Source: a virus (Duplodnaviria; Heunggongvirae; Uroviricota; Caudoviricetes). From it: 25,093 bases of DNA. The position numbers and the translations under genes are program-made. Positions 1,587 to 22,473 of the stretch are shown here, in pieces. The stretch lies in IMG/VR virus record IMGVR_UViG_2541047854_000006; one strand, written 5' to 3'. Below the pieces are notes generated by a model. It did not search any database, was not told the DNA's origin, and worked only from the letters and a program-made list of their open reading frames with translations. Every line of letters starts with the position of its first letter. The first letter of the stretch is position 1.

Positions 1587-1658
1587 CGATTTCTTTATCT
1601 CTTACATCAGACGAGCGCCGGTTGCAGAATACCAGTCACAACCGGCGACAGTTGAACA

Positions 1659-3788: not shown

Positions 3789-3876
3789 GATTAGCCATGA
3801 CTAACATATCGGTCAAGTGATTTTGTATGCTATAGCTAACATAATTGATGTGGTAAAAGATAACTCATTGATGATG

Positions 3877-4284
3877 TTATCTTTTATTTGTCCGCTGACG
3901 GGCTTTTAGTAATTCTTCAAAGAGTTTATTGAAGTTTTTTACTCGAGCTCGCATTTCGGCGAGCTGGGTATCCTGTTCTGATTCTGGCAGTGCATTAAAC
4001 AGCTCAAGGAGCTCTAGTTCTTTGGGGGATAAGGTAACTGGCTTCTCAACAGGTGGTGTTGGTTGCTTGTCTTCATCGCCAAATAGAATCCATGTTGGTG
4101 AGCATTGCAATACTTTGCTGAGGGCAAAAAGGTTCTTCCCTGTAGGTTCACTATCACCCCGTTCCCATTGTGATACAGACACATGGGAGATTTTCAGGGC
4201 TTTAGCAAGAGACCTTTGGGTGTGTTTGAGGTTTTTCCGACGATACCTGATGCGTTCGCCGATAGTTAAATTTTTTGTTTCCAT
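3877..4284 (-). CDS. dicA: DicA, cI-like HTH repressor of the prophage immunity region
   Basis: 135-aa protein METKNLTIGERIRYRRKNLKHTQRSLAKALKISHVSVSQWERGDSEPTGKNLFALSKVL... matches my memory of E. coli DicA (XRE-family HTH); divergent from a Cro-like gene. Confidence 0.88.
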   Translation of the reverse strand: METKNLTIGERIRYRRKNLKHTQRSLAKALKISHVSVSQWERGDSEPTGKNLFALSKVLQCSPTWILFGDEDKQPTPPVEKPVTLSPKELELLELFNALPESEQDTQLAEMRARVKNFNKLFEELLKARQRTNKR

Positions 4285-4367
4285 AGTTAGCTAATGCTAA
4301 ATCGTATTGACTATGTTTTTGTTAACATCTATCTTGTTAGTTATGACTAACAATAAAGGTGTTTTAA
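4285..4367. promoter_or_regulatory. Divergent dicA/dicC promoter-operator region with two related palindromes
   Basis: Palindrome TTAGCTAATGCTAA at 4287..4300 and GTTAGTTATGACTAAC at 4336..4351 (shared TTAG-N-CTAA half-sites) lying between divergent start codons of repressor and Cro-like genes; AT-rich. Confidence 0.6.
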
Positions 4368-4598
4368 ATGCTTAAAACTGACGCTCTTTTGTATTTCGGT
4401 TCAAAAACAAAACTTGCACAAGCAGCAGGTATTCGTTTGGCTTCGCTTTATAGCTGGAAAGGGGATTTAGTTCCCGAAGGTCGCGCGATGCGTCTACAGG
4501 AGGCATCTGGCGGGGAGCTTCAGTATGATCCCAAAGTTTATGATGAATATCGTAAGACGAAGCGGGCGGGGCGGTTGAACAATGAAAATCACTCCTGA
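4368..4598 (+). CDS. dicC: DicC, Cro-like small DNA-binding regulator
   Basis: 76-aa protein MLKTDALLYFGSKTKLAQAAGIRLASLYSWKGDLVPEGRAM... matches remembered DicC; divergent from dicA as in cI/cro arrangement. Confidence 0.85.
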   Translation: MLKTDALLYFGSKTKLAQAAGIRLASLYSWKGDLVPEGRAMRLQEASGGELQYDPKVYDEYRKTKRAGRLNNENHS

Positions 4599-4921
4599 AC
4601 AGGCTCGTGAGGCTCTGGATGCCTGGATATGTCGACCAGGAATGACACAGGAGCAGTGGCGATGTATACAACTCCGGCTACGGGTTATTCCCCTCTGAAC
4701 AGGCGCGTAAGGACTGGCAAAACGCCCGCAAAAAACTCTCGAGGGCAAAGGTGAAGAAACCTGCTGTGGTTGATCCGGACCTTATCTGGTCATCACCTGA
4801 CGGAGAAATACGTCGCTACGACAGTCGCCTAAACATAATCTGTCGCGAGTGCCGGAAGAGCGAAGTTATGCAGCGCATACTGGCTTTCTATCAGGGTAAT
4901 TTTCAGGACGTGGCGCAGTGA
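4582..4921 (+). pseudogene. Early-right ORF apparently split by a +1 frameshift (or two short overlapping ORFs)
   Basis: Frame 1 ATG 4582 gives 38 codons ending at TGA 4696..4698; frame 2 is open from 4646 to TGA 4919..4921 (ends in GTGA overlap with next gene). Both frames contain a similar EQAR..DW motif. Alternative: second ORF starts at GTG 4751 with GAGGG RBS. Confidence 0.3.
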
Positions 4922-5364
4922 GTGCACCGGCAACCATTCTTGATATGTGCTGTGGCAGCCGCATGTTCTGGTTCGATAAGTCTGACGAACGGGCGATATT
5001 CAGCGATATCAGAAAAGAAGGATACACATTACGCAATGGGAGACGCTTGATTATCAGCCCTGACATTATCGCAGATTTTCGTGCATTATCATTTGCAGAC
5101 GCATCTTTTTCGATGGTTGTATTAGACCCTCCGCATCTTGAGAGTGTTGGTGATAACGCCTGGATGGGAAAGAAATATGGACGGCTGAATAAAGATGCCT
5201 GGCGTGATGATTCGCGACAGAGATTTAAAGAAGCCTTTCGGGTGTTGAGGCCGCACGGCGTTCTGATTTTTTAATGGAATGAAACGCAAATACCGGTAAG
5301 CCAGATTCTGGCACTGACAGACAGAAAACCTGTTATCTGTCAACGAACAGGGAAAAAACGATAA
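4918..5364 (+). pseudogene. Methyltransferase-like ORF (DPPH motif) interrupted by in-frame TAA
   Basis: ORF 4918..5274 (LDMCCGS and VVLDPPH motifs typical of SAM-dependent DNA methyltransferases) stops at TAA 5272..5274 but the same frame continues WNETQIPVSQ... to TAA 5362..5364; the sequence across the stop (GVLIF*WNET) resembles the conserved post-DPPY region of methyltransferases. Confidence 0.45.
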
Positions 5365-5696
5365 AACCCACTGGATTATTTTTATGAAAGAGGCATCCAG
5401 TGAGTAGATTCGTAAGGCTACAGATACGTATATCTGAATAATTAAATTCAGTTCTGTAAATAAAATTTAATCCTTAACCGGATGGATTTCTGCACCCTCA
5501 GAACATCAGGAGGCCGCCCGAAAGGGCGGTAGTGAAATGCGAAAGTTCAAAATTATTATTGAAACGGGAATAGCTGGTGGAGATTTTGAGGATGTATTCG
5601 AAGTGGACGATGACGCAACACCTGAGGAAATTCATGACGGAGCATAAGAAATTTTCTTTAACTACTGCAATTACTCATACCACGAAATAAAAGACG

Positions 5697-5888
5697 ATGA
5701 GGAAGAACAAAGTGGCTGATTTTTGTTCAGCTAAATATAACATCAGTTTTGAAGAGCGGGATGAACTATTAATGGACTATGGTGAGTTACGCGGTGGAAG
5801 TGCTGCTGATGTCGAATCCTAGCGTGATGACTATGAAGCGGGAAAAACTCCGGTCGAAGCATATTGTGATGAGTGGGGCGATGAATGA
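5697..5888 (+). pseudogene. Small ORF with in-frame TAG (41 codons, TAG at 5820..5822, 21 more codons)
   Basis: ATG 5697; same frame continues through the amber codon to TGA 5886..5888 which overlaps the next ATG (ATGA). Coding status uncertain. Confidence 0.3.
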
Positions 5889-6172
5889 GCGAGATTAATT
5901 ATCAGGAAGGGCATGAAACGGCGGGGCAAGCAAAACCAGTGGCATGGCGATATCGCTACGTGAAAAAAGGCGTTACGGACTTTCAGGGGAAGTAGTGGTC
6001 TGGTGACTGGAAATATGTACCGAAAAAAGAGGATTGTAACGACAGGCCGAACTATCAAATTCAGGCCTTATTCACTGCCTCACCAGTCCCAGTTACATCA
6101 GAAGAACTGGTTAAAGCTGTGCACTTTTATGAACAACTAAAACGCGAAAATCCACCAACATCCGGCAACTAG
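5885..6172 (+). pseudogene. Small ORF with in-frame TAG (36 codons, TAG at 5993..5995, 58 more codons)
   Basis: ATG 5885 MSEINYQEGHETAGQAKPVAWRYRYVKKGVTDFQGK, amber, then WSGDWKYVPKKEDCNDRPNYQIQALF...SGN with terminal TAG 6170..6172; non-repetitive protein-like composition on both sides of the stop. Confidence 0.3.
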
Positions 6173-6426
6173 ATTAATGGATTAACTATGTCGGTTAAAC
6201 GACCAGCCAACTGAAAAAGCGGAAACCTGATTACAGGTTGCCAGATAAGGCAATGAGCTACCTGGCGCGGAACGGACTGATAAGTATGGGGAATGTTTTA
6301 CGATGAACCTTTAGACTAAAGAGTTTGTAACGCTATGTAAGTGATTTTTTCTGGTTTAGATATTTATATGTCCGGCCAAATTGAGGTGTGTTTAAATGTA
6401 ATTGCACATTGATTGTAGGAGGAATA

Positions 6427-6606
6427 ATGAAAAACGCATTGCAGTTTTTGTTTGTTGCGTTCTGGTTGTTCGCATCATGTATGCCCATCATCTTCACAGC
6501 AAGGTATATGGAAAAAGTTGATGTTTTGATATTAATATTTGGATATATAAATGCCCTTTTTTTAGGGGTGTTCATGGCGGTCATGTGCATTGAATACTGG
6601 CGGTAA
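6427..6606 (+). CDS. Small hydrophobic membrane peptide (59 aa, two predicted TM segments)
   Basis: ATG 6427 preceded by TAGGAGGA RBS; MKNALQFLFVAFWLFASCMPIIFTARYMEKVDVLILIFGYINALFLGVFMAVMCIEYWR is dominated by two hydrophobic stretches. Confidence 0.45.
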   Translation: MKNALQFLFVAFWLFASCMPIIFTARYMEKVDVLILIFGYINALFLGVFMAVMCIEYWR

Positions 6607-6799
6607 ATACAGCGAACTCCATTGGTTTAGTTGGATATTTACTGTGCTGGACAAAAACGGTTTGCGGGGAAATCTTAGTTAAGTAGAATGACTGCGGGTG
6701 CTTGAGGCTATCTGCCTCGGGCATGGACACCAACGGCAGATAGAGAAAAGCCCCAGTTAACATTACGCGTCCTGCAAGACGCTTAACATTAATCTGAGG

Positions 6800-8500
6800 C
6801 CAATTTCATGCTAGACACATGTAGGTTAGCCTCTTACGTGCCGAAAGGCACGGAGAAGCAGGCTATTGTTAACACCAAGCTGTAATGTCCCCTTTGAACC
6901 ATTCTAAAATGTCCCCAGACAATTCTCTGGGGGATTTTTCATGATCAAAGAGACTGTTACGATGAGTCATAAGGAACTCCACCGACTTCAGATTATTCAG
7001 GAACAAGCTGCGGCACGCATTGGCATTTCTATTCGGCAGGTTAAACGTCTGGTGCAACGGTATAGAAATGAAGGGCCTTCTGGTCTGGTTTCCCACCGAC
7101 GTGGAAAGCGTCCTAATAATTCCTTTTCTACTGAATTCAGAGCAACAGTAATTTCACTCCTCAAAGGCCGTTACGCTGATTTTGGACCTACGTTTGCGTG
7201 CGAAAAATTGCGCGAGATACACGGTTTATCTTTATCCGTTGAAACTCTCAGAAAGTGGATGATAGAAGAGGGGTTATGGCGTGAACGCCGTCGTAAAATT
7301 GCCCGTATATATCAACGCCGCATGCGACGACCATCTTACGGTGAACTGATCCAGATTGATGGCTCACCTCATGACTGGTTTGAAAATCGAGGCCCCAGAT
7401 GTACACTGATCGTTTTCATTGATGATGCCACCAGTGCGTTGATGGCGTTGCGTTTTGTGCCTGCTGAAACAACCCGGGCTTACATGGAAACCCTCCGGGG
7501 TTACCTTAATGATCATGGCGTACCGCTCGCTCTCTACTCTGATAGACACAGTATATTCAGGGTAAATAACCCAGAGCGGGAAGGTGAGCTGACCCAGTTC
7601 ACTCGTGCGATAAAGACACTGGGCATCGAGCCAATCCATGCCAACAGCCCGCAGGCAAAAGGGCGGGTAGAGCGCGCCAATCAGACACTACAGGACAGGC
7701 TGGTCAAAGAAATGCGGCTTCAGAATATCAGTGATATTGAAACAGCAAATGCATGGTTGCCGACCTTTATTGAAGCCTATAACAACCGGTTCGCTACGTC
7801 GCCTCGTACTACTGATAATGCTCATCTTGATGTGCACCATTCTGAAGAGGAACTGGGTTATATCTTCAGCCTACAGGCGAAGCGCGTTCTGTCTAAAAAT
7901 CTCACTTTCCAGTACAAAAGCAGTGCGTTTCAGGTACGCAGTGAGGGCCGGGGATATCGACTTAGGCATTCGGTTGTTACTGTATGCGAGAACTTTGACG
8001 GTGAAATTAACGTTCTGTATGACGGGAAAGCGCTGGGCTGGGAAAAGTATGTTGATGGCCCGGAGCCTATACCACTGGATGATGAAAAGAGTGTCCATGA
8101 ACGAGTGGATAATGCCCGTATTGATTTACGCTCAAAATACTATGTTAAACCTAAAGCTGACCATCCCTGGCTTACGCGCCGAACGCAAAGTCATCAGCAA
8201 GTTAAGCCCCCGAAGTTACCTAAAAAGAAGCCTGATCCCGATAAAAAAGATTGAAACCAAGATCGATTCGGTTGAGTGCATATCCATTCATAGGGTAGAT
8301 TCTTAAGTCGCGTTTCTGGTGTTCATTTTCGGGTGGTTTGTTACTTGTTTTACCGGGGATATGCCAGAAACGCGCTGAGTCAGTCTGGGCGGTGCGCGTA
8401 ATGAGGCGTTATGGTAAATAGCCTATGCTAATGTCCGCTAAGAGCAAGAAGCGGAAGTTGGCAGTTTTGTGGACTGTCCCCACAAAAGTGACTACAGAAA
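6800..8500 (+). mobile_element. Insertion sequence-like element carrying a DDE transposase (boundaries approximate)
   Basis: Single transposase ORF interrupting prophage gene order between early-right remnants and flxA; terminal inverted repeats could not be defined by eye, so ends are estimates. Confidence 0.4.
6941..8254 (+). CDS. DDE transposase with N-terminal HTH and integrase-core (rve) domain, IS481/ISNCY-like
   Basis: 437-aa ORF; N-terminal HTH-like region (AAARIGISIRQVKRLVQRY); catalytic-core motifs LIQIDGSPHDW (D), LYSDRHSIF (D), GRVERANQTLQDRL (E); lysine/proline-rich C-terminal tail. Confidence 0.85.
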   Translation: MIKETVTMSHKELHRLQIIQEQAAARIGISIRQVKRLVQRYRNEGPSGLVSHRRGKRPNNSFSTEFRATVISLLKGRYADFGPTFACEKLREIHGLSLSVETLRKWMIEEGLWRERRRKIARIYQRRMRRPSYGELIQIDGSPHDWFENRGPRCTLIVFIDDATSALMALRFVPAETTRAYMETLRGYLNDHGVPLALYSDRHSIFRVNNPEREGELTQFTRAIKTLGIEPIHANSPQAKGRVERANQTLQDRLVKEMRLQNISDIETANAWLPTFIEAYNNRFATSPRTTDNAHLDVHHSEEELGYIFSLQAKRVLSKNLTFQYKSSAFQVRSEGRGYRLRHSVVTVCENFDGEINVLYDGKALGWEKYVDGPEPIPLDDEKSVHERVDNARIDLRSKYYVKPKADHPWLTRRTQSHQQVKPPKLPKKKPDPDKKD

Positions 8501-9555: not shown

Positions 9556-9795
9556 ATGGGTAGCATTAACCTGCGTATTGACGATGAACTTAAAGCGCGT
9601 TCTTACGCCGCGCTTGAAAAAATGGGTGTAACTCCTTCTGAAGCGCTTCGTCTCATGCTCGAGTATATCGCTGACAATGAACGCTTGCCGTTCAAACAGA
9701 CACTCCTGAGTGATGAAGATGCTGAACTTGTGGAGATAGTGAAAGAACGGCTTCGTAATCCTAAGCCAGTACGTGTGACGCTGGATGAACTCTGA
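9556..9795 (+). CDS. relB: RelB antitoxin
   Basis: 79-aa protein MGSINLRIDDELKARSYAALEKMGVTPSEALRLMLEYIADNERLPFKQTLLSDEDAELVEIVKERLRNPKPVRVTLDEL, matches remembered RelB. Confidence 0.92.
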   Translation: MGSINLRIDDELKARSYAALEKMGVTPSEALRLMLEYIADNERLPFKQTLLSDEDAELVEIVKERLRNPKPVRVTLDEL

Positions 9796-10082
9796 TGGCG
9801 TATTTTCTGGATTTTGACGAGCGGGCACTAAAGGAATGGCGAAAGCTGGGCTCGACGGTACGTGAACAGTTGAAAAAGAAGCTGGTTGAAGTACTTGAGT
9901 CACCCCGGATTGAAGCAAACAAGCTCCGTGGTATGCCTGATTGTTACAAGATTAAGCTCCGGTCTTCAGGCTATCGCCTTGTATACCAGGTTATAGACGA
10001 GAAAGTTGTCGTTTTCGTGATTTCTGTTGGGAAAAGAGAACGCTCGGAAGTATATAGCGAGGCGGTCAAACGCATTCTCTGA
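9795..10082 (+). CDS. relE: RelE mRNA interferase toxin
   Basis: 95-aa protein MAYFLDFDERALKEWRKLGSTVREQLKKKLVEVLESPRIEANKLRGMPDCYKIKLRSSGYRLVYQVIDEKVVVFVISVGKRERSEVY..., start overlaps relB stop. Confidence 0.92.
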   Translation: MAYFLDFDERALKEWRKLGSTVREQLKKKLVEVLESPRIEANKLRGMPDCYKIKLRSSGYRLVYQVIDEKVVVFVISVGKRERSEVYSEAVKRIL

Positions 10083-10153
10083 ACCAAAGCATGACATCTC
10101 TGTTTCGCACCGAAGGTGACACTTCTGCTTTGCGTTGACAGGAGAAGCAGGCT

Positions 10154-10309
10154 ATGAAGCAGCAAAAGGCGATGTTAATCGCCCTGATCGTCATCTGTTT
10201 AACCGTCATAGTGACGGCACTGGTAACGAGGAAAGACCTCTGCGAGGTACGAATCCGAACCGGCCAGACGGAGGTCGCTGTCTTCACAGCTTACGAACCT
10301 GAGGAGTAA
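10154..10309 (+). CDS. hokD: HokD (RelF), Hok-family small membrane toxin
   Basis: 51-codon ORF not in the track (below size cut-off): MKQQKAMLIALIVICLTVIVTALVTRKDLCEVRIRTGQTEVAVFTAYEPEE; third gene of relBEF operon. Confidence 0.85.
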   Translation: MKQQKAMLIALIVICLTVIVTALVTRKDLCEVRIRTGQTEVAVFTAYEPEE

Positions 10310-10379
10310 GAGACCCGGCGGGGGAGAAATCCCTCGCCACCTCTGATGTGGCAGGCATCCTCAACGCACCCGCACTTAA

Positions 10380-10402
10380 CCCGCTTCGGCGGGTTTTTGT
10401 TT
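10380..10402 (+). terminator. Rho-independent terminator after relB-relE-hokD
   Basis: CCCGC-TTCG-GCGGG hairpin followed by TTTTTGTTTTTATTTT. Confidence 0.7.
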
Positions 10403-10477
10403 TTATTTTCAACGCGTTTGAAGTTCTGGACGGTGCCGGAATAGAATCAAAAATACTTAAGTAGCGCGCAGGGATAA

Positions 10478-10753
10478 GAGGGATGGTCCCTTAAGGGTAA
10501 AGGGATTGTTCTGGATGAAAAAAGAACCCGGTTTCATGGCGTACCGGTATATAAGATTTGTGGGCGTTGTAATGGAAACCGGTTTAGTCGTTTACCGACC
10601 ACGCTGGCACGACGTCATGTCCAGAAGCTGGTACCAGACCTGACCGATTATCAGTGGTATAAGGGGTATGCGGACGTCATTGGTAAACTGGTAACAAAGT
10701 GCTGGCAGGAAGAAGCATACGCGGAAGCGCAATTGAGGAAGGTGACGAGATAA
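10478..10753 (+). pseudogene. Q antiterminator remnant (C-terminal about 90 codons, no start codon)
   Basis: Frame open from 10478 with no in-frame ATG; translation ...KICGRCNGNRFSRLPTTLARRHVQKLVPDLTDYQWYKGYADVIGKLVTKCWQEEAYAEAQLRKVTR* aligns with the C-terminus of lambda Q (CGRCKGVGYSRMP...NLTQPTW...CHKEESIADNILNAVTR). Confidence 0.6.
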
Positions 10754-10784
10754 ATGATTTTTGCTGAAGATGGCGACATGATGT

Positions 10785-10813
10785 TTGCATTTTTCAAAAA
10801 ATATGGATAAAAT
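10785..10813 (+). promoter_or_regulatory. Late promoter candidate (PR'-like) immediately downstream of Q remnant
   Basis: TTGCAT-N17-TAAAAT sigma-70-like elements 32 bp after the Q stop, in the position of a lambdoid late promoter. Confidence 0.45.
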
Positions 10814-10862
10814 TTTTTCAACGATGGGCTTTGTATACCCGACGTTAAGAAAAAGTAGAAAA

Positions 10863-10889
10863 CCCGCTGATGAGCGGGTTTTGTGCTTT
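10863..10889 (+). terminator. Rho-independent terminator (tR'-like) downstream of late promoter candidate
   Basis: CCCGC-TGATGA-GCGGG hairpin followed by TTTTGTGCTTT. Confidence 0.55.
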
Positions 10890-11174
10890 AAATGGGGCAA
10901 TGGTAATGTTGAATCTCATCCCGGGACTCATGTCTGTTAACTTATTATTTAGCTGGTGACTTGGTTATTTGCCTGATGTTTAAAATGTTTTCTTCCAGTA
11001 CAATGTCCCTAAACACAATGAGTCTGCTTATTATATTATTAGCAGAGCTATTACGGCCAAAGTACAGCATAAGCTTTTAAAGCCAATCAACCAGTCATCA
11101 AGACAGACGGGGTTATTCATAAAAACTCTCCATGTGTGATCCGATGGGGCCTGAAATTAAAGCTTTAATATAGC

Positions 11175-11387
11175 TCATGAAAGGTAAACATTGGCAGCTG
11201 AAGGGCCACGCAGACCATTTATCCGGCAAAATTCCACGCGTAATCCGGTGGTAATTTCTTCTGCATCGCGGAGATTGAGCGCTGAAACATGAAGCTGGAC
11301 ATCGATACGACCATCGGATGGGGTGATAAGACCCTTGCCGCTTTTGCCGTCAAAGGTTTTGACAATTCCTGTCATTTTACGGGACAA
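11175..11387 (-). CDS. cspF: Cold-shock-domain protein CspF
   Basis: 70-aa protein [70 protein letters not shown]; CSD fold with divergent RNP motifs as in CspF/CspH. Confidence 0.8.
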
Positions 11388-11687
11388 AAAAATTCCTTAA
11401 TACTGATAACTTGGCGCACTATACACACGTTCCTGAAGAAAGCTATAGTTTTTTGATGGGGTTGAAGATGGCTGGATGTCTAAAATAAACATTGCTTCAT
11501 ATGTTCAACTATGCGTTAATGATTGCGTCGGTTTGAAGAACAGACGATATACGAAGTAGTTTACTAAAGCAGTTCTCATTTCAGGTGTTATTCACTTATT
11601 CCTTCTTTGAGTCTCTCCAATTAAGTACGAAGTCGTTTCTGTTATGCAAACCATTTATGCCGAAAGGCTCAAGTTAAGGAATGTAGA

Positions 11688-11903
11688 ATGTCAAATAAAA
11701 TGACTGGTTTAGTAAAATGGTTTAACGCTGATAAAGGTTTCGGCTTTATTTCTCCTGTTGATGGTAGTAAAGATGTGTTTGTGCATTTTTCTGCGATTCA
11801 GAATGATAATTATCGAACCTTATTTGAAGGTCAAAAGGTTACCTTCTCTATAGAGAGTGGTGCTAAAGGTCCTGCAGCAGCAAATGTCATCATTACTGAT
11901 TAA
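11688..11903 (+). CDS. cspB: Cold-shock protein CspB
   Basis: 71-aa protein [71 protein letters not shown]; long AT-rich 5' leader typical of cold-shock genes. Confidence 0.9.
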
Positions 11904-12185
11904 AATTCATCGCTCGTCTGTATACGATAACGAAGAAGGCTGATGCCTGAGTAGAGATACGGACAGAGTAGTGAATATTGGATCTCTTTAATAAAAAGTA
12001 AGGAGGTCCAATACATGAAACAATGGCTAGCATATTTGGCAAAATCTTAATCAGGAAAAGTATGCTAACCATTGTGGTGAAGTGCAGGTTTGCTGCATGA
12101 ATAGTTTTACAGCAGAAGCTAACTGCTGGCATGGCAAAACAAAGTGCGTAAGTGGATGACTCCCACAAAAAGCACCACAATCTCA

Positions 12186-12210
12186 AACCCGCTCAGGCGG
12201 GTTTTTTATT
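12186..12210. terminator. Hairpin terminator (possibly bidirectional) between cspB region and convergent zinc-ribbon ORF
   Basis: AACCCGC-TCAG-GCGGGTT followed by TTTTTTATT on plus strand; complementary strand is followed by TTTGAGATT. Confidence 0.6.
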
Positions 12211-12266
12211 ATCTGCTTTAAATATATTATTAAAATATAAAAAATACTTGTTACTAATAAAATCAA

Positions 12267-12437
12267 TCAGGCTACAGCTTTAAGATTTGTCTGGAATACT
12301 TTGTTGCAATGAGGGCAGATCAAAAGGGCACCTTTTTGTACTCTTGAAAAACTGTGTTCTGACTCTTGGGTGCAGTTTGGGCAGGAACATTTAACGAGAT
12401 AATTACGGCGTGATTTTGAGTTTTTACGTTCTGACAT
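12267..12437 (-). CDS. Small C4 zinc-ribbon protein (56 aa), hypothetical
   Basis: Internal Met of the 73-aa track ORF has an AGGAAAA RBS; MSERKNSKSRRNYLVKCSCPNCTQESEHSFSRVQKGALLICPHCNKVF... contains CxCPNC...CPHC. Confidence 0.5.
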   Translation of the reverse strand: MSERKNSKSRRNYLVKCSCPNCTQESEHSFSRVQKGALLICPHCNKVFQTNLKAVA

Positions 12438-12656
12438 AGGCTTTTCCTGTATAAATGGCCGTATACAGTACACTAAATATGAAAACATTTCTCGTATTAT
12501 TATTTTATATATGACTTTCTTTCAAAATAATTACCCACATTTTTAATTTGTATGTTTTTTTAGCGCCGTTGAGAACAACGTGTGCTGTCAAAACTACCCC
12601 GTAGACTCCGATCTTTTCAAACATATTGCACCATCCGTGTACATCGGGGTGAGGAT

Positions 12657-12872
12657 ATGAAATCAATGGATAAGTTAACAACAGGTGTTGCCTATGGCAC
12701 ATCGGCGGGTAATGCTGGTTTCTGGGCATTGCAGTTACTCGATAAAGTAACTCCGTCACAGTGGGCTGCAATCGGTGTGCTGGGTAGCCTGGTTTTTGGC
12801 CTGCTGACGTATCTGACAAATCTTTATTTCAAGATTAAAGAAGACAGGCGTAAGGCTGCGAGAGGAGAGTAA
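12657..12872 (+). CDS. Class II holin, phage 21 S-type pinholin with dual-start motif
   Basis: [71 protein letters not shown] closely resembles remembered S21 pinholin; MKSMDK offers two starts (antiholin/holin). Track ORF start 12582 is upstream of the likely RBS-supported start. Confidence 0.85.
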
Positions 12873-12876
12873 TCCA

Positions 12877-13184
12877 ATGACTCAAGACTATGAACTGGTT
12901 GTGAAAGGAGTCCGTAATTTTGAGAATAAAGTTACGGTAACTGTAGCCTTACAGGACAAAGAACGCTTTGACGGTGAAATTTTTGACCTGGATGTCGCCA
13001 TGGACCGTGTTGAAGGAGCTGCGCTGGAGTTTTATGAGGCAGCAGCCAGAAGGAGCGCCCGGCAAGTCTTCCTGGAAGTAGCAGAAAAATTGTCAGAAAA
13101 AGTTGAGTCTTATCTGCAGCATCAGTACTCCTTTAAGATTGAAAATCCTGCCAATAAGCACGAGCGTCCTCATCATAAATATCT

Positions 13185-13188
<4 letters not shown>
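12877..13188 (+). CDS. ydfR: YdfR-like protein of unknown function located between holin and endolysin
   Basis: 103-aa protein MTQDYELVVKGVRNFENKVTVTVALQDKERFDGEIFDLDVAMDRVEGAALEFYEAAARRS... matches my memory of Qin YdfR; stop overlaps endolysin start (ATGA). Confidence 0.6.
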
Positions 13189-14212
<1,024 letters not shown>

Positions 14213-14574
14213 GGTAATATTAAATCGGAACATTTACATCGCGGAATGTAAAATTTAAATAAAAAGGACTCTTCCATGAGCCAAAATTCCTGAAATCTTA
14301 AGGGTAAGATAAAAGGTCTTAATCAGAATGACACGTTTTATTAATAAATAAAGCTATTCTTTCATTGCTGTGTTTTTCTTTACAAAAGTAATCCTTGCTA
14401 TGGGTGGTTAATCATGCGTTAATGGTGTTCTGGTTTGTTACAAATTTATCTGAAGCAGTCATTGTTATAATTTTATTATTTGTACCTCTTGAGATTTCCT
14501 TGTTGGTTTTTCTCTCTGATATTTTTTTTCGGACCATTCTGCCCAAGGGCTAATTTCTTCAAAAGGTAATAATT

Positions 14575-14787
14575 ATGTCTAACAAAATGACTGGTTTAGT
14601 GAAATGGTTTAACCCTGAAAAAGGTTTTGGTTTCATCACGCCGAAAGATGGCAGCAAAGATGTGTTTGTCCATTTCTCAGCAATTCAGAGCAACGATTTC
14701 AAAACATTAACTGAGAATCAGGAAGTTGAATTTGGTATTGAGAACGGACCTAAAGGTCCTGCCGCTGTTCATGTAGTGGCGCTTTGA
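14575..14787 (+). CDS. cspI: Cold-shock protein CspI
   Basis: 70-aa protein [70 protein letters not shown]; preceded by about 350 bp AT-rich leader. Confidence 0.9.
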
Positions 14788-14993
14788 GGTAGACAATATT
14801 ACAAACCATATTCACTTTAGATGCCCGTGTTGTCATGGTTCCCAGTATAGAACATCATCTTTTGATGTTTCTGACATGAATCCTTTCGGGGCAAAATGTA
14901 TCTTTTGTAAATCAATGATGATTACATTTGATAATATTTCACAATACTTAAATGCCAGCCGTCTGTCGTTGGATTTAAAAAAGTGAAAATGAA

Positions 14994-15015
14994 GGCTCCT
15001 TCGGGAGCTTTTTTG
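14994..15015 (+). terminator. Rho-independent terminator downstream of cspI region
   Basis: GCTCC-TTCG-GGAGC hairpin followed by TTTTTTG. Confidence 0.6.
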
Positions 15016-15058
15016 CTTGGTGTCTATTCGATGGATACTCACATACTACGGTAACATC

Positions 15059-15289
15059 ATGAAAAAAATCATAGTTTTTTTTAACTCTGAACCAGCAGTG
15101 GTAGTGCCAGCGATGACTGGAGTTAACACCATCATGCGTGAATATCCAAATGGCGAAAAAACACACCTTACTGTAATGGCCGCAGGGTTTCCATCTCTGA
15201 CCGGAGATCATAAAGTCATTTATGTAGCCGCGGATCGACATGTTACTTCAGAAGAAATTCTGGAAGCAGCAATAAGGCTCTTGAGTTGA
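15059..15289 (+). CDS. Hypothetical protein (76 aa from ATG 15059; track ORF begins at TTG 15017)
   Basis: Open frame only; no recognisable motif; weak RBS. Confidence 0.35.
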   Translation: MKKIIVFFNSEPAVVVPAMTGVNTIMREYPNGEKTHLTVMAAGFPSLTGDHKVIYVAADRHVTSEEILEAAIRLLS

Positions 15290-15457
15290 TTTGATGCTAT
15301 TGCATTGATAATTCAGGAAAATTCTCTTTGTCTGTTTGTGTAAAATTTAGACTATCGTATGTTGATTATTGCGATGTTTCATCTTATCTTTTACACGTTT
15401 GCACCATATAATCGACTTACTGTGTAACTGGAAAGTCATAACAGACTAAAAGAGGAA

Positions 15458-15634
15458 ATGATGAATATTGAAAACTTAAAAACAAAAGCAGAAGCAGATA
15501 TTTCTGAATATATAACAAAAAAAATTATTGAACTTAAGAAAAAGACCGGGAAAGAAGTTACCAGTATTCAGTTTACCGCACGGGAAAAAATGACGGGTCT
15601 TGAAAGCTATGATGTCAAGATTAATTTAATCTGA
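15458..15634 (+). CDS. gnsB: GnsA/GnsB-family small protein
   Basis: 58-codon ORF not in the track: MMNIENLKTKAEADISEYITKKIIELKKKTGKEVTSIQFTAREKMTGLESYDVKINLI, AAGAGGA RBS; matches remembered GnsB family sequence. Confidence 0.8.
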   Translation: MMNIENLKTKAEADISEYITKKIIELKKKTGKEVTSIQFTAREKMTGLESYDVKINLI

Positions 15635-15662
15635 TGTATTCAATAATAAAATTTATCCATAA

Positions 15663-15690
15663 ACCTCGTTTTTACGGGGTTTTGTTATAT
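15663..15690 (+). terminator. Rho-independent terminator after gnsB
   Basis: ACCTCG-TTTTTA-CGGGGT hairpin followed by TTTGTTATATTTG. Confidence 0.55.
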
Positions 15691-15785
15691 TTGAATGGTT
15701 CCGAATATCTAAATCACAATTGTTGATGGTTTTTATTAAACCAATGCAGTCCGGCTCAGGAGTGAGAGAAGCCGGACGTTATGGT

Positions 15786-16211
15786 TTAGCGTGGTAAGAT
15801 CTGTGTAGTTTTCTGGATGCTTTCAGTAAATAGTAATGAATTATCAAAGGTATAGTAATATCTTTTTTGTTCGTGGATATTTGTAACCCACCGAAAAACT
15901 CCTGCTTTAGCAAGGTTTCTTCTGTATTCCTGAAATGTGATCTCTCTGGATTTCAGCTTATTAGAGGTCGTTTCTATAAGATGCCTATCCTTTGAAAATT
16001 TGACAGACACAATGTTTTTTAGGCCCTTTAATAACACTGTATTATCATTTTTTAATACAATATGAACATTCTCTGTGGCTAAATAGTAAATGTAATGTGA
16101 GACATTGTGACGTTTTAGCTCAGAATAAAACCATTGATAGTTTAAATCGTTTCGAACTTTATCAAATATTTGTTTAAAAATGACTACCTGATCCATAGAT
16201 AAACCTTCCAT
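15786..16211 (-). CDS. Prophage protein of unknown function (DUF1398-like, YdfO/YbcV position)
   Basis: 141-aa ORF; likely start at second Met (16196) which has a GGAAGG RBS. Family assignment from memory of gene order in Qin/DLP12, not verified. Confidence 0.6.
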
Positions 16212-16639: not shown

Positions 16640-16875
16640 AATCATTATCACTTTACGGGTCCTTTCCGGTGATCCGACAGGTTACGGGGCGGCGACCTCG
16701 CGGGTTTTCGCTATTTATGAAAATTTTCCGGTTTAAGGCATTTCCGTTCTTCTTCGTCGTAACTTAATGTTTTTATTTAAAATACCCCCTGAAAAGAAAG
16801 GAAACGACAGGTGCTGAAAACGAGCTTTTGGGCCTCTGTCGTTTCCTTTCTCTGTTTTTGGCCGTGGAATGAACA
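16640..16875 (+). other. Lambda-type cos site: cosN (12-nt cohesive end GGGCGGCGACCT at 16687..16698) plus cosB region up to Nu1
   Basis: Sequence GGTTACGGGGCGGCGACCTCGCGGGTTTTCGCTATTTATGAAAATTTTCCGGTTTAAGGC... is nearly identical to the left end of the phage lambda genome as I remember it, continuing into Nu1. Confidence 0.85.
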
Positions 16876-17421
16876 ATGGAAGTCAACAAAAAGCAGCTGG
16901 CTGACATTTTCGGTGCGAGTATCCGTACCATTCAGAACTGGCAGGAACAGGGAATGCCCGTTCTGCGAGGCGGTGGCAAGGGTAATGAGGTGCTTTATGA
17001 CTCTGCCGCCGTTATAAGATGGTATGCCGAAAGGGATGCTGAAATTGAGAACGAAAAGCTGCGCCGGGAAGTTGAAGAACTGCGGCAGGCCAGCGAGACA
17101 GATCTCCAGCCAGGGACTATTGAGTACGAACGCCATCGACTTACGCGTGCGCAGGCCGACGCACAGGAGCTGAAAAATGCCAGAGACTCCGCTGAAGTGG
17201 TGGAAACCGCATTCTGTACTTTCGTGCTGTCGCGGATCGCAGGTGAAATTGCCAGTATTCTCGACGGGATCCCCCTGTCGGTGCAGCGGCGTTTTCCGGA
17301 ACTGGAAAACCGACATGTTGATTTCCTGAAACGGGATATCATCAAAGCCATGAACAAAGCAGCCGCGCTGGATGAACTGATACCGGGGTTGCTGAGTGAA
17401 TATATCGAACAGTCAGGTTAA
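16876..17421 (+). CDS. Terminase small subunit, lambda Nu1 homolog
   Basis: 181-aa protein MEVNKKQLADIFGASIRTIQNWQEQGMPVLRGGGKGNEVLYDSAAV... essentially lambda Nu1. Confidence 0.92.
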   Translation: MEVNKKQLADIFGASIRTIQNWQEQGMPVLRGGGKGNEVLYDSAAVIRWYAERDAEIENEKLRREVEELRQASETDLQPGTIEYERHRLTRAQADAQELKNARDSAEVVETAFCTFVLSRIAGEIASILDGIPLSVQRRFPELENRHVDFLKRDIIKAMNKAAALDELIPGLLSEYIEQSG

Positions 17422-18406
17422 CAGGCTGCGGCATTTTGTCCGCGCCGGGCTTCGCTCACTGTTCAGGCCGGAGCCACAGACCGCCGTTGAATGGGCGGAT
17501 GCTAATTACTATCTCCCGAAAGAATCCGCATACCAGGAAGGGCGCTGGGAAACACTGCCCTTTCAGCGGGCCATCATGAATGCGATGGGCAGCGACTACA
17601 TCCGTGAGGTGAATGTGGTGAAGTCTGCCCGTGTCGGTTATTCCAAAATGCTGCTGGGTGTTTATGCCTACTTTATAGAGCATAAGCAGCGCAACACCCT
17701 TATCTGGTTGCCGACGGATGGTGATGCCGAGAACTTTATGAAAACCCACGTTGAGCCGACCATCCGCGATATTCCGTCGCTGCTGGCGCTGGCTCCGTGG
17801 TATGGCAAAAAGCACCGGGATAACACGCTCACTATGAAGCGTTTTTCCAATGGTCGTGGCTTCTGGTGCCTGGGCGGTAAAGCGGCAAAAAACTACCGTG
17901 AAAAGTCGGTGGATGTGGCGGGTTATGATGAACTTGCTGCCTTTGATGAGGATATTGAACAGGAAGGCTCTCCGACGTTCCTTGGCGACAAACGTATTGA
18001 AGGCTCGGTCTGGCCAAAGTCCATCCGTGGCTCCACGCCCAAAGTGAGAGGCACCTGCCAGATTGAGCGTGCAGCCAGTGAATCCCTGCATTTTATGCGT
18101 TTTCATGTTGCCTGCCCGCACTGCGGGGAGGAGCAGTATCTTAAATTTGGCGACAAAGAGACGCCGTTTGGCCTCAAATGGACGCCGGATGACCCCTCCA
18201 GCGTGTTTTATCTCTGCGAGCATAATGCCTGCGTCATCCGCCAGCAGGAGCTGGACTTTACTGATGCCCGTTATATCTGCGAAAAGACCGGGATCTGGAC
18301 CCGTGATGGCATTCTCTGGTTTTCGTCAACCGCGTTGCGTCATCCGCGATATCGCAGTCTGCGTCACAGGTTGCCCGTGAGACAAAGGTACGCCGGAAAC
18401 TGGTAA
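17396..18406 (+). pseudogene. Terminase large subunit (lambda A) N-terminal fragment, truncated by internal deletion
   Basis: Matches lambda gpA from MNISNSQVNRLRHF... through ...TGIWTRDGILWFSS (about 308 aa), then diverges into 25 unrelated codons and stops; full gpA is about 641 aa. Confidence 0.85.
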
Positions 18407-18819
18407 AGGAAAGGGCCAGGCTGAAAAGGGCCACGGTCAAAAATCCGCAGGCCAGAATCAGGGTTAACCGGGGGGATTTGCCCGTAATCAAGCTGGGTAA
18501 TGCGCGGGTTGTCCTGTCCCGCCGCAGGCGTCGTAAAAAGGGGCAGCGTTCATCCCTGAAAGGTGGCGGCAGCGTGCTTGTGGTGGGAAACCGTCGTATT
18601 CCCGGCGCGTTTATTCAGCAACTGAAAAATGGCCGGTGGCATGTCATGCAGCGTGTGGCCGGGAAAAACCGTTACCCCATTGATGTGGTGAAAATCCCGA
18701 TGGCGGTGCCGCTGACCACGGCGTTTAAACAGAATATTGAGCGGATACGGCGTGAGCGTCTTCCGAAAGAGCTGGGCTATGCGCTGCAGCATCAACTGAG
18801 AATGGTAATAAAGCGATGA
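18307..18819 (+). pseudogene. Tail completion protein (lambda Z) C-terminal fragment lacking a start
   Basis: Frame open from 18307; C-terminal 113-aa ORF (18478..18819) ends in ATGA overlap with U exactly as Z/U in lambda; upstream in-frame codons lack an ATG. Deletion junction with A lies near 18320. Confidence 0.6.
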
Positions 18820-19211
18820 AACATACTGAACTCCGTGCAGCCGTACTGGATGCACTGGAGAAGCATGACACCGGGGCGACGCTTTTTGATGGTCGCCCCG
18901 CTGTTTTTGATGAGGAAGATTTTCCGGCAGTTGCCGTTTATCTCACCGGCGCTGAATACACGGGCGAAGAGCTGGACAGCGATACCTGGCAGGCGGAGCT
19001 GCATATTGAAGTTTTCCTGCCTGCTCAGGTGCCGGATTCAGAGCTGGATTCGTGGATGGAGTCCCGGATTTATCCGGTGATGAGCGATATCCCGGCACTG
19101 TCAGATTTGATCACCAGTATGGTGGCCAGTGGCTATGACTACCGGCGCGACGATGATGCGGGCCTGTGGAGTTCAGCCGATCTGACTTATGTCATTACCT
19201 ATGAAATGTGA
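18816..19211 (+). CDS. Tail terminator protein, lambda U homolog
   Basis: 131-aa protein [67 protein letters not shown]... matches lambda gpU. Confidence 0.9.
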
Positions 19212-19218
19212 GGACGAT

Positions 19219-21210
19219 ATGCCAACACCAAATCCTCTGGCACCGGTGAAAGGGGCCGGGACCACACTGTGGGTTTATAACGGGAGCGGCGACCCTTATG
19301 CAAACCCGCTTTCAGACAATGACTGGTCGCGTCTGGCAAAGGTTAAAGACCTGACGCCCGGCGAACTGACCGCTGAGTCCTATGACGACAGTTATCTCGA
19401 TGATGAAGATGCGGACTGGACCGCGACCGGACAGGGGCAGAAATCTGCCGGAGATACCAGCTTCACGCTGGCGTGGATGCCCGGAGAGCAGGGGCAGCAG
19501 GCGCTGCTGGCGTGGTTTAATGAAGGTGATACCCGTGCCTATAAAATCCGCTTCCCGAACGGCACGGTCGATGTGTTCCGTGGCTGGGTCAGCAGTATCG
19601 GTAAGGCGGTGACGGCGAAGGAAGTGATTACCCGCACGGTGAAGGTCACCAATGTGGGACGTCCGTCGATGGCAGAAGATCGCAGCGCGACCAACAGCAC
19701 GTCTGAAACGCTTGCCGCGACACCAAAGGCAGTAAAAGCAGCCAATGACAATGCTGAGAAACGTCTGCAGAAAGATCAGAACGGTGCGGATATCCCTGGC
19801 AAAGATACCTTTACGAAAAATATTGGTGCCTGCCGTGCCTTCGGTGGGTCAGTAAGCACAACAACAGGAAACTGGACGACTGCACAGTTTATCGAGTGGC
19901 TGGATTCTCAGGGAGCATTTAACCATCCATACTGGATGTGCAAGGGTTCCTGGTCTTATGGCAATAATAAAATCATTACTGATACTGACTGCGGTAATAT
20001 TCATCTCGCCGGAGCTGTCATTGAAGTAATGGGGATAAAGTCAGCGATGACGATCCGCATTACCACACCGACCACCTCCACTGGTGGTGGAACAACTAAC
20101 GCCCAGTTTACCTATATTAATCACGGAACAGATTATTCACCTGGCTGGCGAAGGGACTATAACTCCAGAAATAAGCCAACGGCATCAGAGATCGGGGCGT
20201 TACCGTCAGGTGGAACAGCAGTATCATCAGTTAATCTGGCTTCAAAAGGTCGGGTAACCGCGCTGACAGACAATACGCAGGGGGCAGCAGGTCTTGAGTT
20301 ATACGAGGTGTATAACAACGGATATCCAACAGCGTATGGAAATATCATTCACCTGAAAGGGATGACAGCCGTTGGCGAAGGTGAGTTACTCATCGGCTGG
20401 AGTGGTACAAGCGGTGCTCATGCTCCGGCATTTATTCGTTCACGACGGGATACGACCGACGCAAACTGGTCGCCGTGGGCGCAGCTTTACACCTCGGCTC
20501 ATCCTCCTGCAGAGTTTTATCCAGTCGGTGCACCAATCCCGTGGCCATCAGATACCGTTCCGTCTGGTTATGCCCTGATGCAGGGGCAGACTTTTGACAA
20601 ATCTGCATACCCGAAACTTGCAGTTGCTTATCCGTCAGGCGTGATCCCTGATATGCGTGGCTGGACGATTAATGGCAAGCCCGCCAGTGGTCGGGCCGTA
20701 TTATCTCAGGAACAGGACGGCATTAAATCGCACACCCACAGCGCCAGCGCATCCAGTACGGATTTGGGGACGAAAACCACATCGTCGTTTGATTACGGAA
20801 CCAAATCCACGAATAACACCGGGGCGCATACCCATAGTATTAGCGGGACCGCAAATAGTGCCGGTGCGCACCAACACAAGAGTTCCGGTGCATTTGGTGG
20901 CACGAACACGAGCATTTTCCCTAATGGTTATACCGCGATTTCAAATCTAAGCGCGGGGATTATGAGCACAACAAGCGGTAGTGGCCAGACTCGTAATGCA
21001 GGGAAGACATCATCAGATGGTGCTCATACCCACTCGCTGTCCGGCACTGCTGCAAGCGCAGGCGCACATGCACATACTGTCGGTATTGGTGCTCATACGC
21101 ACTCCGTTGCGATTGGTTCACATGGACACACCATCACCGTTAACGCTGCTGGTAACGCGGAAAACACCGTCAAAAACATCGCATTTAACTATATTGTGAG
21201 GCTTGCATAA
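19219..21210 (+). CDS. Chimeric ORF: major tail protein (lambda V) N-terminal about 166 aa fused in frame to a side tail fiber C-terminal region
   Basis: N-terminus [20 protein letters not shown]...[11 protein letters not shown] matches lambda gpV; from [26 protein letters not shown] onward it matches the conserved shaft and C-terminal receptor-binding region of P2 H / lambda Stf-type fibres (PIPWPSD..., SHTHSASAS..., repeated GAHxH motifs, ...[11 protein letters not shown]). Start placed at the Met equivalent to the lambda V start. Confidence 0.8.
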
Positions 21211-21785
21211 TGGCATTCAGAATGAGTGAACAACCACGGACCATAAAAATTTATAATCTGCTGGCCGGAACTAATGAATTTATTGGTGAAGGTGATGCAT
21301 ATATTCCGCCTCATACAGGTCTGCCAGCAAACAGTACCGATATTGCACCGCCAGATATTCCGGCTGGCTTCGTGGCTGTTTTCAACAGTGATGAGTCATC
21401 GTGGCATCTCGTTGAAGATCATCGGGGTAAAACGGTTTATGACGTGGCTTCCGGCGACGCGTTATTTATTTCTGAACTCGGTCCGTTACCGGAAAATGTT
21501 ACCTGGTTATCGCCGGAAGGGGAGTTTCAGAAGTGGAACGGCACAGCCTGGGTGAAGGATACGGAAGCAGAAAAACTGTTCCGGATCCGGGAGGCGGAAG
21601 AAACAAAAAACAACCTGATGCAGGTAGCCAGTGAGCATATTGCGCCGCTTCAGGATGCTGCAGATCTGGAAATTGCAACGGAGGAAGAAATCTCGTTGCT
21701 GGAAGCATGGAAAAAGTATCGGGTATTGCTGAACCGTGTTGATACGTCAACTGCACAGGATATTGAATGGCCAGCACTGCCGTAG
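21210..21785 (+). CDS. Tail fiber assembly protein (Tfa family)
   Basis: 191-aa ORF starting in TAATG overlap with the fibre gene; [51 protein letters not shown]... typical of lambda Tfa / P2 G chaperones. Confidence 0.85.
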
Positions 21786-21882: not shown

Positions 21883-22473
21883 TTATATGTCAGGTGTCTG
21901 AAGTTTTGCTTTGGCTCTTAAAATGGTTTGCCGCGAGGTTTTGAATTCCCGGGCAATGGCACTTATACTTACACCTGACTTAATTCGTTCGAATACCGCC
22001 TGTTTCTGTTCTTCATTTAACACAGGTAGTCGACCAAAACGTTTCCCTGCGCCGCGGGCTCTTACTATCCCGGAATGAGTGCGTTCAAGTAAAAGGTCTC
22101 GTTCAAATTCAGCGACTGCTGAAATTACTTGCATCATCATTTTTCCTGTTGGACTGGTCAGGTCAATGCCACCCAATGCTAAGCAATGCACTCTGATACC
22201 TGTTTCGGTCAGTTGTTCCACTGTTTTCCTGATATCCATTGCATTACAACCAAGGCGATCCAGTTTTGTCACAATCAATTGATCACCACATTTCAGGCGA
22301 GCAAGCAACCGGTTAAAACCAGGACGCTCACTGGTTGCTGCTGAGCCGCTAATGTGTTCTTCGATTATTTGCTGAGGTTTGATTTTAAAACCTGCACTTT
22401 CGATTTCCCGGCGTTGATTTTCGGTGGTCTGATCCAGCGTTGATATCCGACAGTAAGCAAAAATTCGAGACAT
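21883..22473 (-). CDS. Serine recombinase, Pin/Gin/Hin-type DNA invertase
   Basis: 196-aa protein [29 protein letters not shown]... with resolvase-type N-terminal catalytic Ser region and C-terminal HTH ([19 protein letters not shown]); convergent with the fibre genes. Confidence 0.88.

Follow-up and report, generated by a model that had tools for sequence, protein, structure and literature searches.

A 6,421-bp deletion joint between terminase gene A and tail gene Z in a Qin-type prophage of Escherichia coli coincides with a recurrently used crossover position

The DNA analyzed here, IMG/VR record IMGVR_UViG_2541047854_000006 (25,093 nucleotides, Caudoviricetes; below, the window), contains a truncated terminase gene A joined to the rear part of tail gene Z, and this joint (J4) is the subject of the analysis. 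Over its entire length, the window represents a Qin-type lambdoid cryptic prophage from the rspB/ydfJ site of Escherichia coli. As annotated in the identical DNA of B-JRPT-4119 and O15_8X, the prophage lies between rspB and a truncated ydfJ and carries the Qin gene set, including relBE, hokD, cspB/F/I, essD-ydfR-rrrQ-rzpQ (essQ/rrrQ/rzpQ), gnsB, ydfO, ynfO, nohA, tfaQ, pinQ, and ydfK. Wherever both hold DNA, the window is colinear with the Qin prophage of strain K-12, with 99.6-99.96% identity. The inducible relative PhiR42_1 (48.7 kb) shares the early and lysis genes and has in addition a full lambda-like head and tail module, and strain N18-04097 carries an intact prophage of the window's type at the identical chromosomal site. 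DNA identical to positions 16800-19400 of the window was found in B-JRPT-4119 and O15_8X, and DNA with 99.9% identity to it in FORC_082, while the identity of NCCP12480, followed from 16800, stops at 19034. The prophage is defective, as it has five deletions compared to PhiR42_1 and has lost genes for particle formation. Missing are all head genes and the tract from the 3′ part of V through G, T, H, M, L, K, I, J, and lom to the 5′ part of stf; still present are cos, nohA, U, a V-Stf fusion, tfaQ, and pinQ. The features at the joint are as follows.

17396..18328, + strand: A′, codons 1-311 of the terminase large subunit gene, GTG start, ATPase domain only; a pseudogene "missing C-terminus" according to the NCBI Prokaryotic Genome Annotation Pipeline (PGAP)
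18328..18329, no strand: deletion joint J4, located by three-way alignments
18329..18406, + strand: 25 out-of-frame codons and a stop, which close the A′ reading frame within Z DNA
18328..18819, + strand: Z′, codons 30-192 and the stop of tail gene Z, start codon lost; a pseudogene "missing N-terminus" according to PGAP

The open reading frame (ORF) from 17396 to 18406 (336 amino acids, GTG start) overlaps nohA in the manner in which lambda A overlaps Nu1, and it consists of lambda gpA codons 1-311 followed by the 25 out-of-frame residues TALRHPRYRSLRHRLPVRQRYAGNW and a stop codon. The three-way alignments showed that the gene A homology runs to 18328, which completes codon 311 (...WTRDGILWFSS), and that the gene Z homology starts at 18328, the first base of codon 30 (AAC, 18328-18330), and reaches the stop at 18819. 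Megablast extends the match to 18332 over one mismatch, but the true identity to the intact phages ends at 18328. This base (A) is common to both parents, as the third base of A codon 311 and the first base of Z codon 30. The base before it, 18327, is specific to A, and the base after it, 18329, is the first one specific to Z, so that the perfect microhomology at the joint amounts to 1 nt, with no filler. The gap measures 6,421 bp against each of the three references (lambda 1644-8064, PhiR42_1 25141-31561, and N18-04097 9580-16000), and it comprises A codons 312-641, W, B, C/Nu3, D, E, FI, FII, and Z codons 1-29. A preliminary description of the window, made from its letters alone, had noted the abrupt end of the gpA-like sequence after ...GILWFSS and had proposed that the A 3′ half and the portal, protease/scaffold, capsid, and head-tail joining genes were lost, and both points are borne out by the alignment to lambda, PhiR42_1, and N18-04097. 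The breakpoint, which it had put near 18320, lies exactly at 18328; likewise, the frame from 18307 to 18819, which it had read as the C-terminal part of Z, is indeed Z, but 18307 is only a stop-to-stop boundary and the Z DNA begins at 18328.

Because the Z frame is shifted relative to that of A, the A′ ORF continues in Z DNA for 25 junk codons, up to a stop at 18406. The only Pfam domain found in A′ was GpA_ATPase (PF05876; residues 47-285, E 4e-51). The C-terminal nuclease and portal-binding half of gpA (full length ~641 amino acids) is absent, as the homology ends at codon 311 and no second Pfam domain was matched, which makes A′ a pseudogene rather than a functional member of the gpA family. 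In the 18307-18819 frame, Minor_tail_Z (PF06763) was matched over profile positions 27-190 of 190. Full-length gpZ with its own start is not encoded, since codons 1-29 with the ATG are deleted, and the first start codon in the Z′ frame is the TTG at 18478. Both A′ and Z′ are already labelled as incomplete pseudogenes by the NCBI pipeline. Neither would be expected to function, Z′ because its start and first 29 codons are lost, and A′ because it ends in 25 junk codons and misses the nuclease domain. The loss of the nuclease and portal-binding half of the terminase together with all head genes means that the prophage is unable to build or fill capsids. In kind, J4 is ordinary prophage decay and belongs to the familiar class of cryptic-prophage deletion scars; it fits the class of microhomology-poor illegitimate deletions, with an overlap within 0-5 nt, no filler, and no long parental repeat.

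The sequences on both sides of J4 were compared with intact alleles. A′ has no differences from A of PhiR42_1, and Z′ has none from Z of N18-04097 (100% identical), while the identity of Z′ to lambda Z is 97.8% (11 differences in 491 nt). U and the V part together have five differences from N18-04097. Just within Z, two bases differ from lambda and PhiR42_1; both changes are synonymous in the Z frame and are found in the intact N18-04097 allele; hence, they are natural alleles and not repair-associated mutations beside the joint. No post-deletion decay was detectable in A′ or Z′ compared to the intact alleles. The joint itself is rare: among 5,426 complete E. coli genomes, 4 gave a full-length match to a 120-nt probe across it, and it was also present in a single contig from a gut metagenome and a single IMG/VR contig (L077), the latter of which has the V-Stf joint too. 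Since J4 is identical in all of these, it is not an assembly artefact. Strain NCCP12480 shares J4 and has a further deletion, which runs from U codon 72 into stf.

The Z side of J4 belongs to an 8-base site, TAACCGCG, which occurs in exactly two copies in PhiR42_1, one in Z and one in stf, on the same strand. The copy in stf is native in the window:

20255..20262, + strand: second TAACCGCG site, in stf

When complete genomes and IMG/VR contigs were probed for the flanks of both TAACCGCG sites, about 26 distinct joints were found at the two sites, with different partners and exact to the nucleotide. The stf gene was joined at TA/ACCGCG (the slash marks the crossover) to 13 different left partners, including A codon 3 (K-12), A codon 82, portal gene B, capsid gene E (two positions), Z codon 29, U codon 72, ynfO, the 5′ part of stf, an HK97-type protease gene, and others. 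Z was joined at TA/ACCGCG to seven different left partners, which were the ynfO-cos spacer (23CRST024), Nu1 at lambda 697 (L3452210II), A186 (three Kenyan isolates), A311 (the window), A489, and two in other phages. Six joints retain the left side of a site with the right side replaced, and one of these six (L204) runs into inverted stf DNA, with the reciprocal partner falling outside the contig. The recurrent joint in stf was seen in K-12, NCCP12480, WG5::PA8, ET896, OW848980, NCTC9066, and IMG/VR contigs. On their right side, the deletions of K-12 and NCCP12480 both end at the identical stf nucleotide (window 20256/57, GGGTA/ACCGCGCTG), and in NCCP12480 the U codon 72 is fused in frame to the same Stf codon that is used in K-12 (Thr357), while WG5::PA8 (ynfO), ET896, OW848980, and NCTC9066 have other partners at this nucleotide. 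At these right ends and at the Z end of J4 (CATTA/ACCGCGTTG), the local sequence is the same.

Within the 30 nt upstream of either site, every locus divergence sits at the TA and none elsewhere, and the partial matches of a 120-nt stf probe to complete genomes begin at probe positions 56-59. The rearrangements come from unrelated strains, and also from different phage types at one locus. As a control, all non-colinear joints were catalogued in 235 loci (2.19 Mb); of the 27 distinct joints, 11 touch the two TAACCGCG sites, while the remainder are scattered, some of them also of the TA type. The recurrence is statistically robust in the gathered data. A scan of genome contigs gave chance matches only, plus two E. 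coli loci. A third recurrent crossover was observed near the 3′ end of Nu1 (window ~17380-17384, lambda ~697), at GAACTGA-TA-CCGGGG (GATA/CCGG); it was used three times, and in the loci with this crossover (L044, L241, L202, and L264) it is joined to three different partners, one being the Z site and the other two lying in the J region.

The sequences of the partner sites were analyzed where the native sequence was recoverable. TA was found at the crossover in 14 of 17 such sites (binomial p 6e-17, with a phage TA frequency of 0.044), and the three others are one base off (CA, TG, and TT), with the product carrying either version. An 18th partner site (23CRST024), outside this count, also has TA. 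A fixed 2-bp crossover common to both partners, as in exchanges by serine recombinases, was thus observed. The surrounding positions were biased as well: G occupied -2 in 12 of the 17 partners (p 2e-4), and 10 of the 17 had C at +2 (p 1.5e-3). While the two strong sites are alike only on the right arm (ACCGCGYTG), the partners suggest the sequence GNTANC. Four of the five partners of the Z site have G at -2, although the Z site itself has A there, which would argue for symmetric recognition of GNTANC over homology to the partner. The left site of J4, CGT-CA-TCCG, has G at -2, C at +2, and a right arm, TCCG, that resembles the ACCG of Z, so that only the first crossover base differs. By these features, J4 fits the pattern of the recurrent site.

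The 18328/18329 position is a 6,421-bp deletion scar in a Qin-type prophage, and it probably arose in a one-step exchange at the preferred site in Z. By its anatomy, it is a clean non-homologous joint, the Z end of which coincides with a recurrently used nucleotide. Behind this recurrence we infer a sequence-preferring process with a 2-nt overlap. One non-homologous step probably fused A codon 311 to Z codon 30 out of frame, and the exchange would have taken place between the preferred site in Z (CAT-TA-ACCGCG) and a secondary site in A (CGT-CA-TCCG), with its centre at a 2-nt position. The agent could be a dimeric enzyme whose cutting or exchange has a stagger of 2 nt; alternatively, 2-nt pairing could follow a fixed nick or an arrest of replication. 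Either proposal is in accord with the fixed crossover, the TA in both partners, and the weakly symmetric GNTANC context. As a more general and only tentative proposal, a so far unrecognized sequence-preferring recombination activity, encoded by the host or by a prophage, might act on E. coli lambdoid prophages. It could be a serine-recombinase-like enzyme or another one with a 2-nt stagger, for which TA/ACCGCG (in Z and stf) would be the strong site and GNTANC sequences the weak sites, and it would repeatedly excise head and tail modules and would also have created the K-12 stfQ gene.

Several observations weigh against this interpretation. J4's own left site has CA and not TA, and, taken alone, J4 resembles any deletion with 1 nt of microhomology. 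The other four deletions of the window use no TAACCGCG site. The surveyed loci were retrieved by sequence beside the two sites, which biases the absolute rates, while the position of divergence within a locus is unbiased. PinQ, which is encoded beside stf, acts at pix repeats (CCTTCTCCCAAACCAA) that are unlike TAACCGCG, and none of them was present at the joints. Finally, the preliminary description had ascribed the loss to one event; this is the most parsimonious account of a clean joint with flanks identical to intact alleles, but a single step is not provable, since a later deletion erases earlier joints.

In the main alternative, TA/ACCGCG is the place where a nick, a double-strand break, or an arrest of replication occurs in a sequence-specific manner, after which the 2-nt TA end pairs with a TA elsewhere. 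A nuclease or a DNA-bound protein could be the cause, and template switching or ligation could complete the joint. This explanation, which we regard as possible but doubtful, accounts for the one fixed and one variable end with short pairing between them; deletions at arrest sites with just these properties were reportedly described by Bierne, Ehrlich, and Michel in 1997. It is also in agreement with the observation that the sequence common to both sites lies on one side only (ACCGCGYTG). On the other hand, break repair in E. coli normally involves resection, and yet not one base was lost on the fixed side in ~26 joints. Moreover, either side of the site can be retained, and the partner context is symmetric beyond the TA alone. 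A nick or arrest fits less well with the lack of any resection and with the retention of either side.

The exchange could also be the secondary-site action of a serine recombinase (PinQ, PinR, or another resolvase or invertase) with a 2-bp TA crossover, for which TAACCGCG would serve as a strong pseudo-site and GNTANC sequences as weak partners, in analogy to the deletions made by Cin at quasi-sites or by lambda Int at secondary sites. The fixed crossover dinucleotide, which is needed as TA in both partners, would be consistent with such an enzyme, and the fact that partners with a one-base mismatch yield either version is what a 2-nt heteroduplex predicts. The symmetric G(-2) and C(+2), seen even for partners of the Z site, where the site itself has A at -2, the retention of either side of the sites, the one joint to inverted DNA, and the location of pinQ next to stf-tfaQ point in the same direction, as would the hint of dyad symmetry. 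PinQ, PinR, and PinE were reported to act at the e14 pix repeats (PMC12529663), and we confirmed that the e14 pix repeats of K-12 are of the AAACC-NN-GGTTT type with a TT/AA centre. In contrast, the joint sites have the reversed arrangement (GGT-TA-ACC), and no pix-like sequence is present there. No reciprocal pair of inversion joints was recovered among the joints. This assignment seems rather unlikely. PinQ acting at pix was rejected as a candidate, because the window has 14 loose AAACCNNGGTTT-like matches compared to 15.4 expected, with none at the joints, and because both the e14 pix and the published PinQ site are unlike TA/ACCGCG. An inverted partner of the stf site was not found near pinQ.

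Random illegitimate recombination, by end joining or replication slippage at 1 nt of microhomology and with no site preference, would make the shared Z end a coincidence or a sampling bias. It is in keeping with the perfect microhomology of just 1 nt at J4, with the 2-5 nt overlaps at unrelated sequences of the other four deletions of the window, and with the scattered joints known in other loci. However, it would hardly give seven partners at one Z nucleotide and 13 at one stf nucleotide, when these sites are the sole TAACCGCG copies in a 48.7-kb phage, no divergence occurs elsewhere in the 30 nt upstream of either, and TA is present in 14 of 17 partner sites, and we consider it improbable. 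That a short A and a headless Z are native to the phage lineage, or an assembly artefact, has virtually no probability, since the ORF pattern itself is all that speaks for it, while 99.8-100% identical relatives carry full-length A (641 codons) and Z with all head genes between them and four independent complete genomes contain J4.

Other candidates for the origin of the joints were rejected. No inserted insertion sequence (IS) or other element was seen at either site among the ~250 loci examined, so that IS-mediated deletion is not indicated, and with no occupied site in these loci, insertion followed by excision of such an element was ruled out as well. The phage att core (ATTATGGATTTC) is unrelated to the joint site. 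A gyrase-type exchange with a 4-nt stagger was excluded by reasoning, as it predicts joints at the edges of NTAN, while all joints are central. In a comparison by eye only, none of the Chi, EcoKI, Ter, RuvC/RusA, and cosN sequences fits the joint site. Selection for in-frame Stf fusions was rejected as the cause, since WG5::PA8, OW848980, and NCTC9066 are out of frame, while K-12, NCCP12480, and the window are in frame. The 9-mer CGTCATCCG spans the parental A breakpoint and recurs 10 nt inside Z of this allele (window 18324-18346), and only 0.7% of random breakpoint pairs shared a repeat of at least 9 nt within ±20 nt. Still, this repeat was rejected as the cause of J4, because a crossover there gives a different product and the joint is not at the repeat; its presence at J4 is probably a coincidence.

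The remaining features of the window that are relevant to its right half are as follows.

16687..16698, + strand: cosN 12-mer GGGCGGCGACCT, intact; equals lambda position 1, and the lambda alignment begins at window 16687
16876..17421, + strand: nohA (Nu1 terminase small subunit), intact, 181 amino acids; Pfam Phage_Nu1 1-164/164, E 2e-101; annotated as nohA
18816..19211, + strand: U (tail terminator), intact, 131 amino acids; Pfam Phage_tail_U 1-130/130; one difference from N18-04097
19219..21210, + strand: V(1-156)::Stf(518-end) in-frame chimera, with joint J5 at 19682-19686; annotation, Pfam, and alignment
21210..21785, + strand: tfaQ, tail fibre assembly protein; annotation and Pfam
21883..22473, - strand: pinQ, serine recombinase; annotation; context only

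The nohA gene has no differences from PhiR42_1. The intact cosN GGGCGGCGACCT and the full-length nohA (16687-17421) adjoin the truncated A, and a lambda-type helper terminase could in principle still recognize the cos of this element.

The preliminary description had counted two large deletions in the structural module, the second being the V/fibre chimera, and both are real, but the prophage carries five deletions in all. The second one is J5 (overlap GCAGC), where V codon 156 is in frame with Stf codon 518 and 11,865 bp are missing. The resulting chimera is an intact ORF of 663 codons, annotated as "phage tail tube protein" (WP_001301021.1). J1, at 3740/41, has lost 1,990 bp with the overlap TA, from the 5′ part of recE through ydfC, dicF, and dicB, all of which are kept in K-12; its span includes ydfA-B-C, dicF, dicB, and ydfD. 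This loss makes the window a Qin variant without the DicB/DicF division inhibitor. J2, at 4654-56, has lost 1,591 bp with the overlap CAG, which removed the dicC 3′ end, a ydaT-like gene, and most of replication gene O. The otherwise 100%-identical prophages of O15_8X, FORC_082, and B-JRPT-4119 retain these 1,591 bp; as these three lack J2, the source strain of the window is a slightly more decayed relative outside the 5,426 complete genomes. J3, near 10492-97, has lost ~2.2 kb with rem, ydfU, and the 5′ portion of antiterminator gene Q. The overlaps at these four joints are 2, 3, 3, and 5 nt, at unrelated sequences. Three different deletion starts, including that of J5 (19682-19686), fall within 30 nt in V codons ~152-161 (L002 32906-32935), although not at one nucleotide and without TA overlaps. 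C-terminal parts of Stf are fused in frame in three independent cases, which are the window, K-12, and NCCP12480; this could be chance (~1/27), or the C-terminus of Stf might still be expressed together with TfaQ. The similarity of stf alleles collapses in 20842-21014. Within this interval, the sole loose AAACCNNGGTTT-like match in stf, ATACCGCGATTT (20930-20941), may be a degenerate pix-type site.

Taken alone, the J4 scar is a record of the loss of the head genes in one Qin lineage, which is routine decay. The deletions by which lambdoid prophages become inactive are commonly regarded as chance events on which selection then acts. If an enzyme were responsible, the inactivation of E. coli prophages would be partly targeted, which would provide a directed route to domestication and would account for the architecture of the textbook Qin prophage of K-12. 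No description of the recurrent TA/ACCGCG joint or of such a hotspot was found in searches of the literature. The deletion scar itself had already been flagged as pseudogenes by automatic annotation.

Truncated terminase genes are present in other cryptic prophages of K-12. The aaaE gene of e14 is a remnant of the terminase large subunit, like A′, with the pseudogene annotated within the chimeric ymfN, and aaaD of DLP12 is another such remnant. Both come from different phages and have different joints from that of the window. At the locus studied here, other headless variants were also observed in MEI1O2-23, ET896, and OW848980. In one of them A codon ~64 is joined to capsid gene E, and in the two others non-lambda head modules (DUF1441-type terminase and HK97-type protease) are fused to the Stf-TfaQ-PinQ right end. 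The varied left modules on one right end indicate that the right end is older or more stable than the DNA to its left.

With regard to the type of the joint, illegitimate recombination independent of short homology, or alternative end joining, has reportedly been described in E. coli by the Ikeda laboratory and by Chayot and coworkers in 2010. The joints of the window are similar in that they have 0-5 nt of microhomology, no filler, and no need for RecA-type homology, but such processes are not known to revisit one nucleotide. Also comparable are the b deletions promoted by lambda Int, and the recombination of Cin at quasi-sites, reportedly studied by Iida and Hiestand-Nauer in 1986/87, in which a fixed strong site is combined with variable weak partners. 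In such secondary-site events of Int and Cin, the partners share the crossover bases, and both deletions and inversions occur. The fixed sites found here differ from them in their location, which is within two structural genes (Z and stf) rather than at att or cix/pix, and they do not match the known pix sequence.

The closest analogue is the Qin prophage of K-12 with its nohA-stfQ joint, which belongs to the same prophage family, occupies the same ydfJ site, and has 99.6-99.96% identical flanks. It also became headless via a non-homologous deletion that begins in or beside gene A. The K-12 StfQ ORF (963 nt) starts with GTG-AAT-ATA of gene A and continues in frame with Stf from Thr357 (VNI/TALTDN). 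In contrast to the window, K-12 has a single deletion that is larger and connects A codon 3 directly with Stf codon 357 (window 17404 joined to 20255-57); this deletion spans both J4 and J5, and it used the stf copy of TAACCGCG, while the window used the Z copy. Moreover, dicB/dicF and rem-ydfU are kept in K-12 but lost in the window. The fact that K-12 retains regions which are lost in the window indicates that the two prophages decayed independently.

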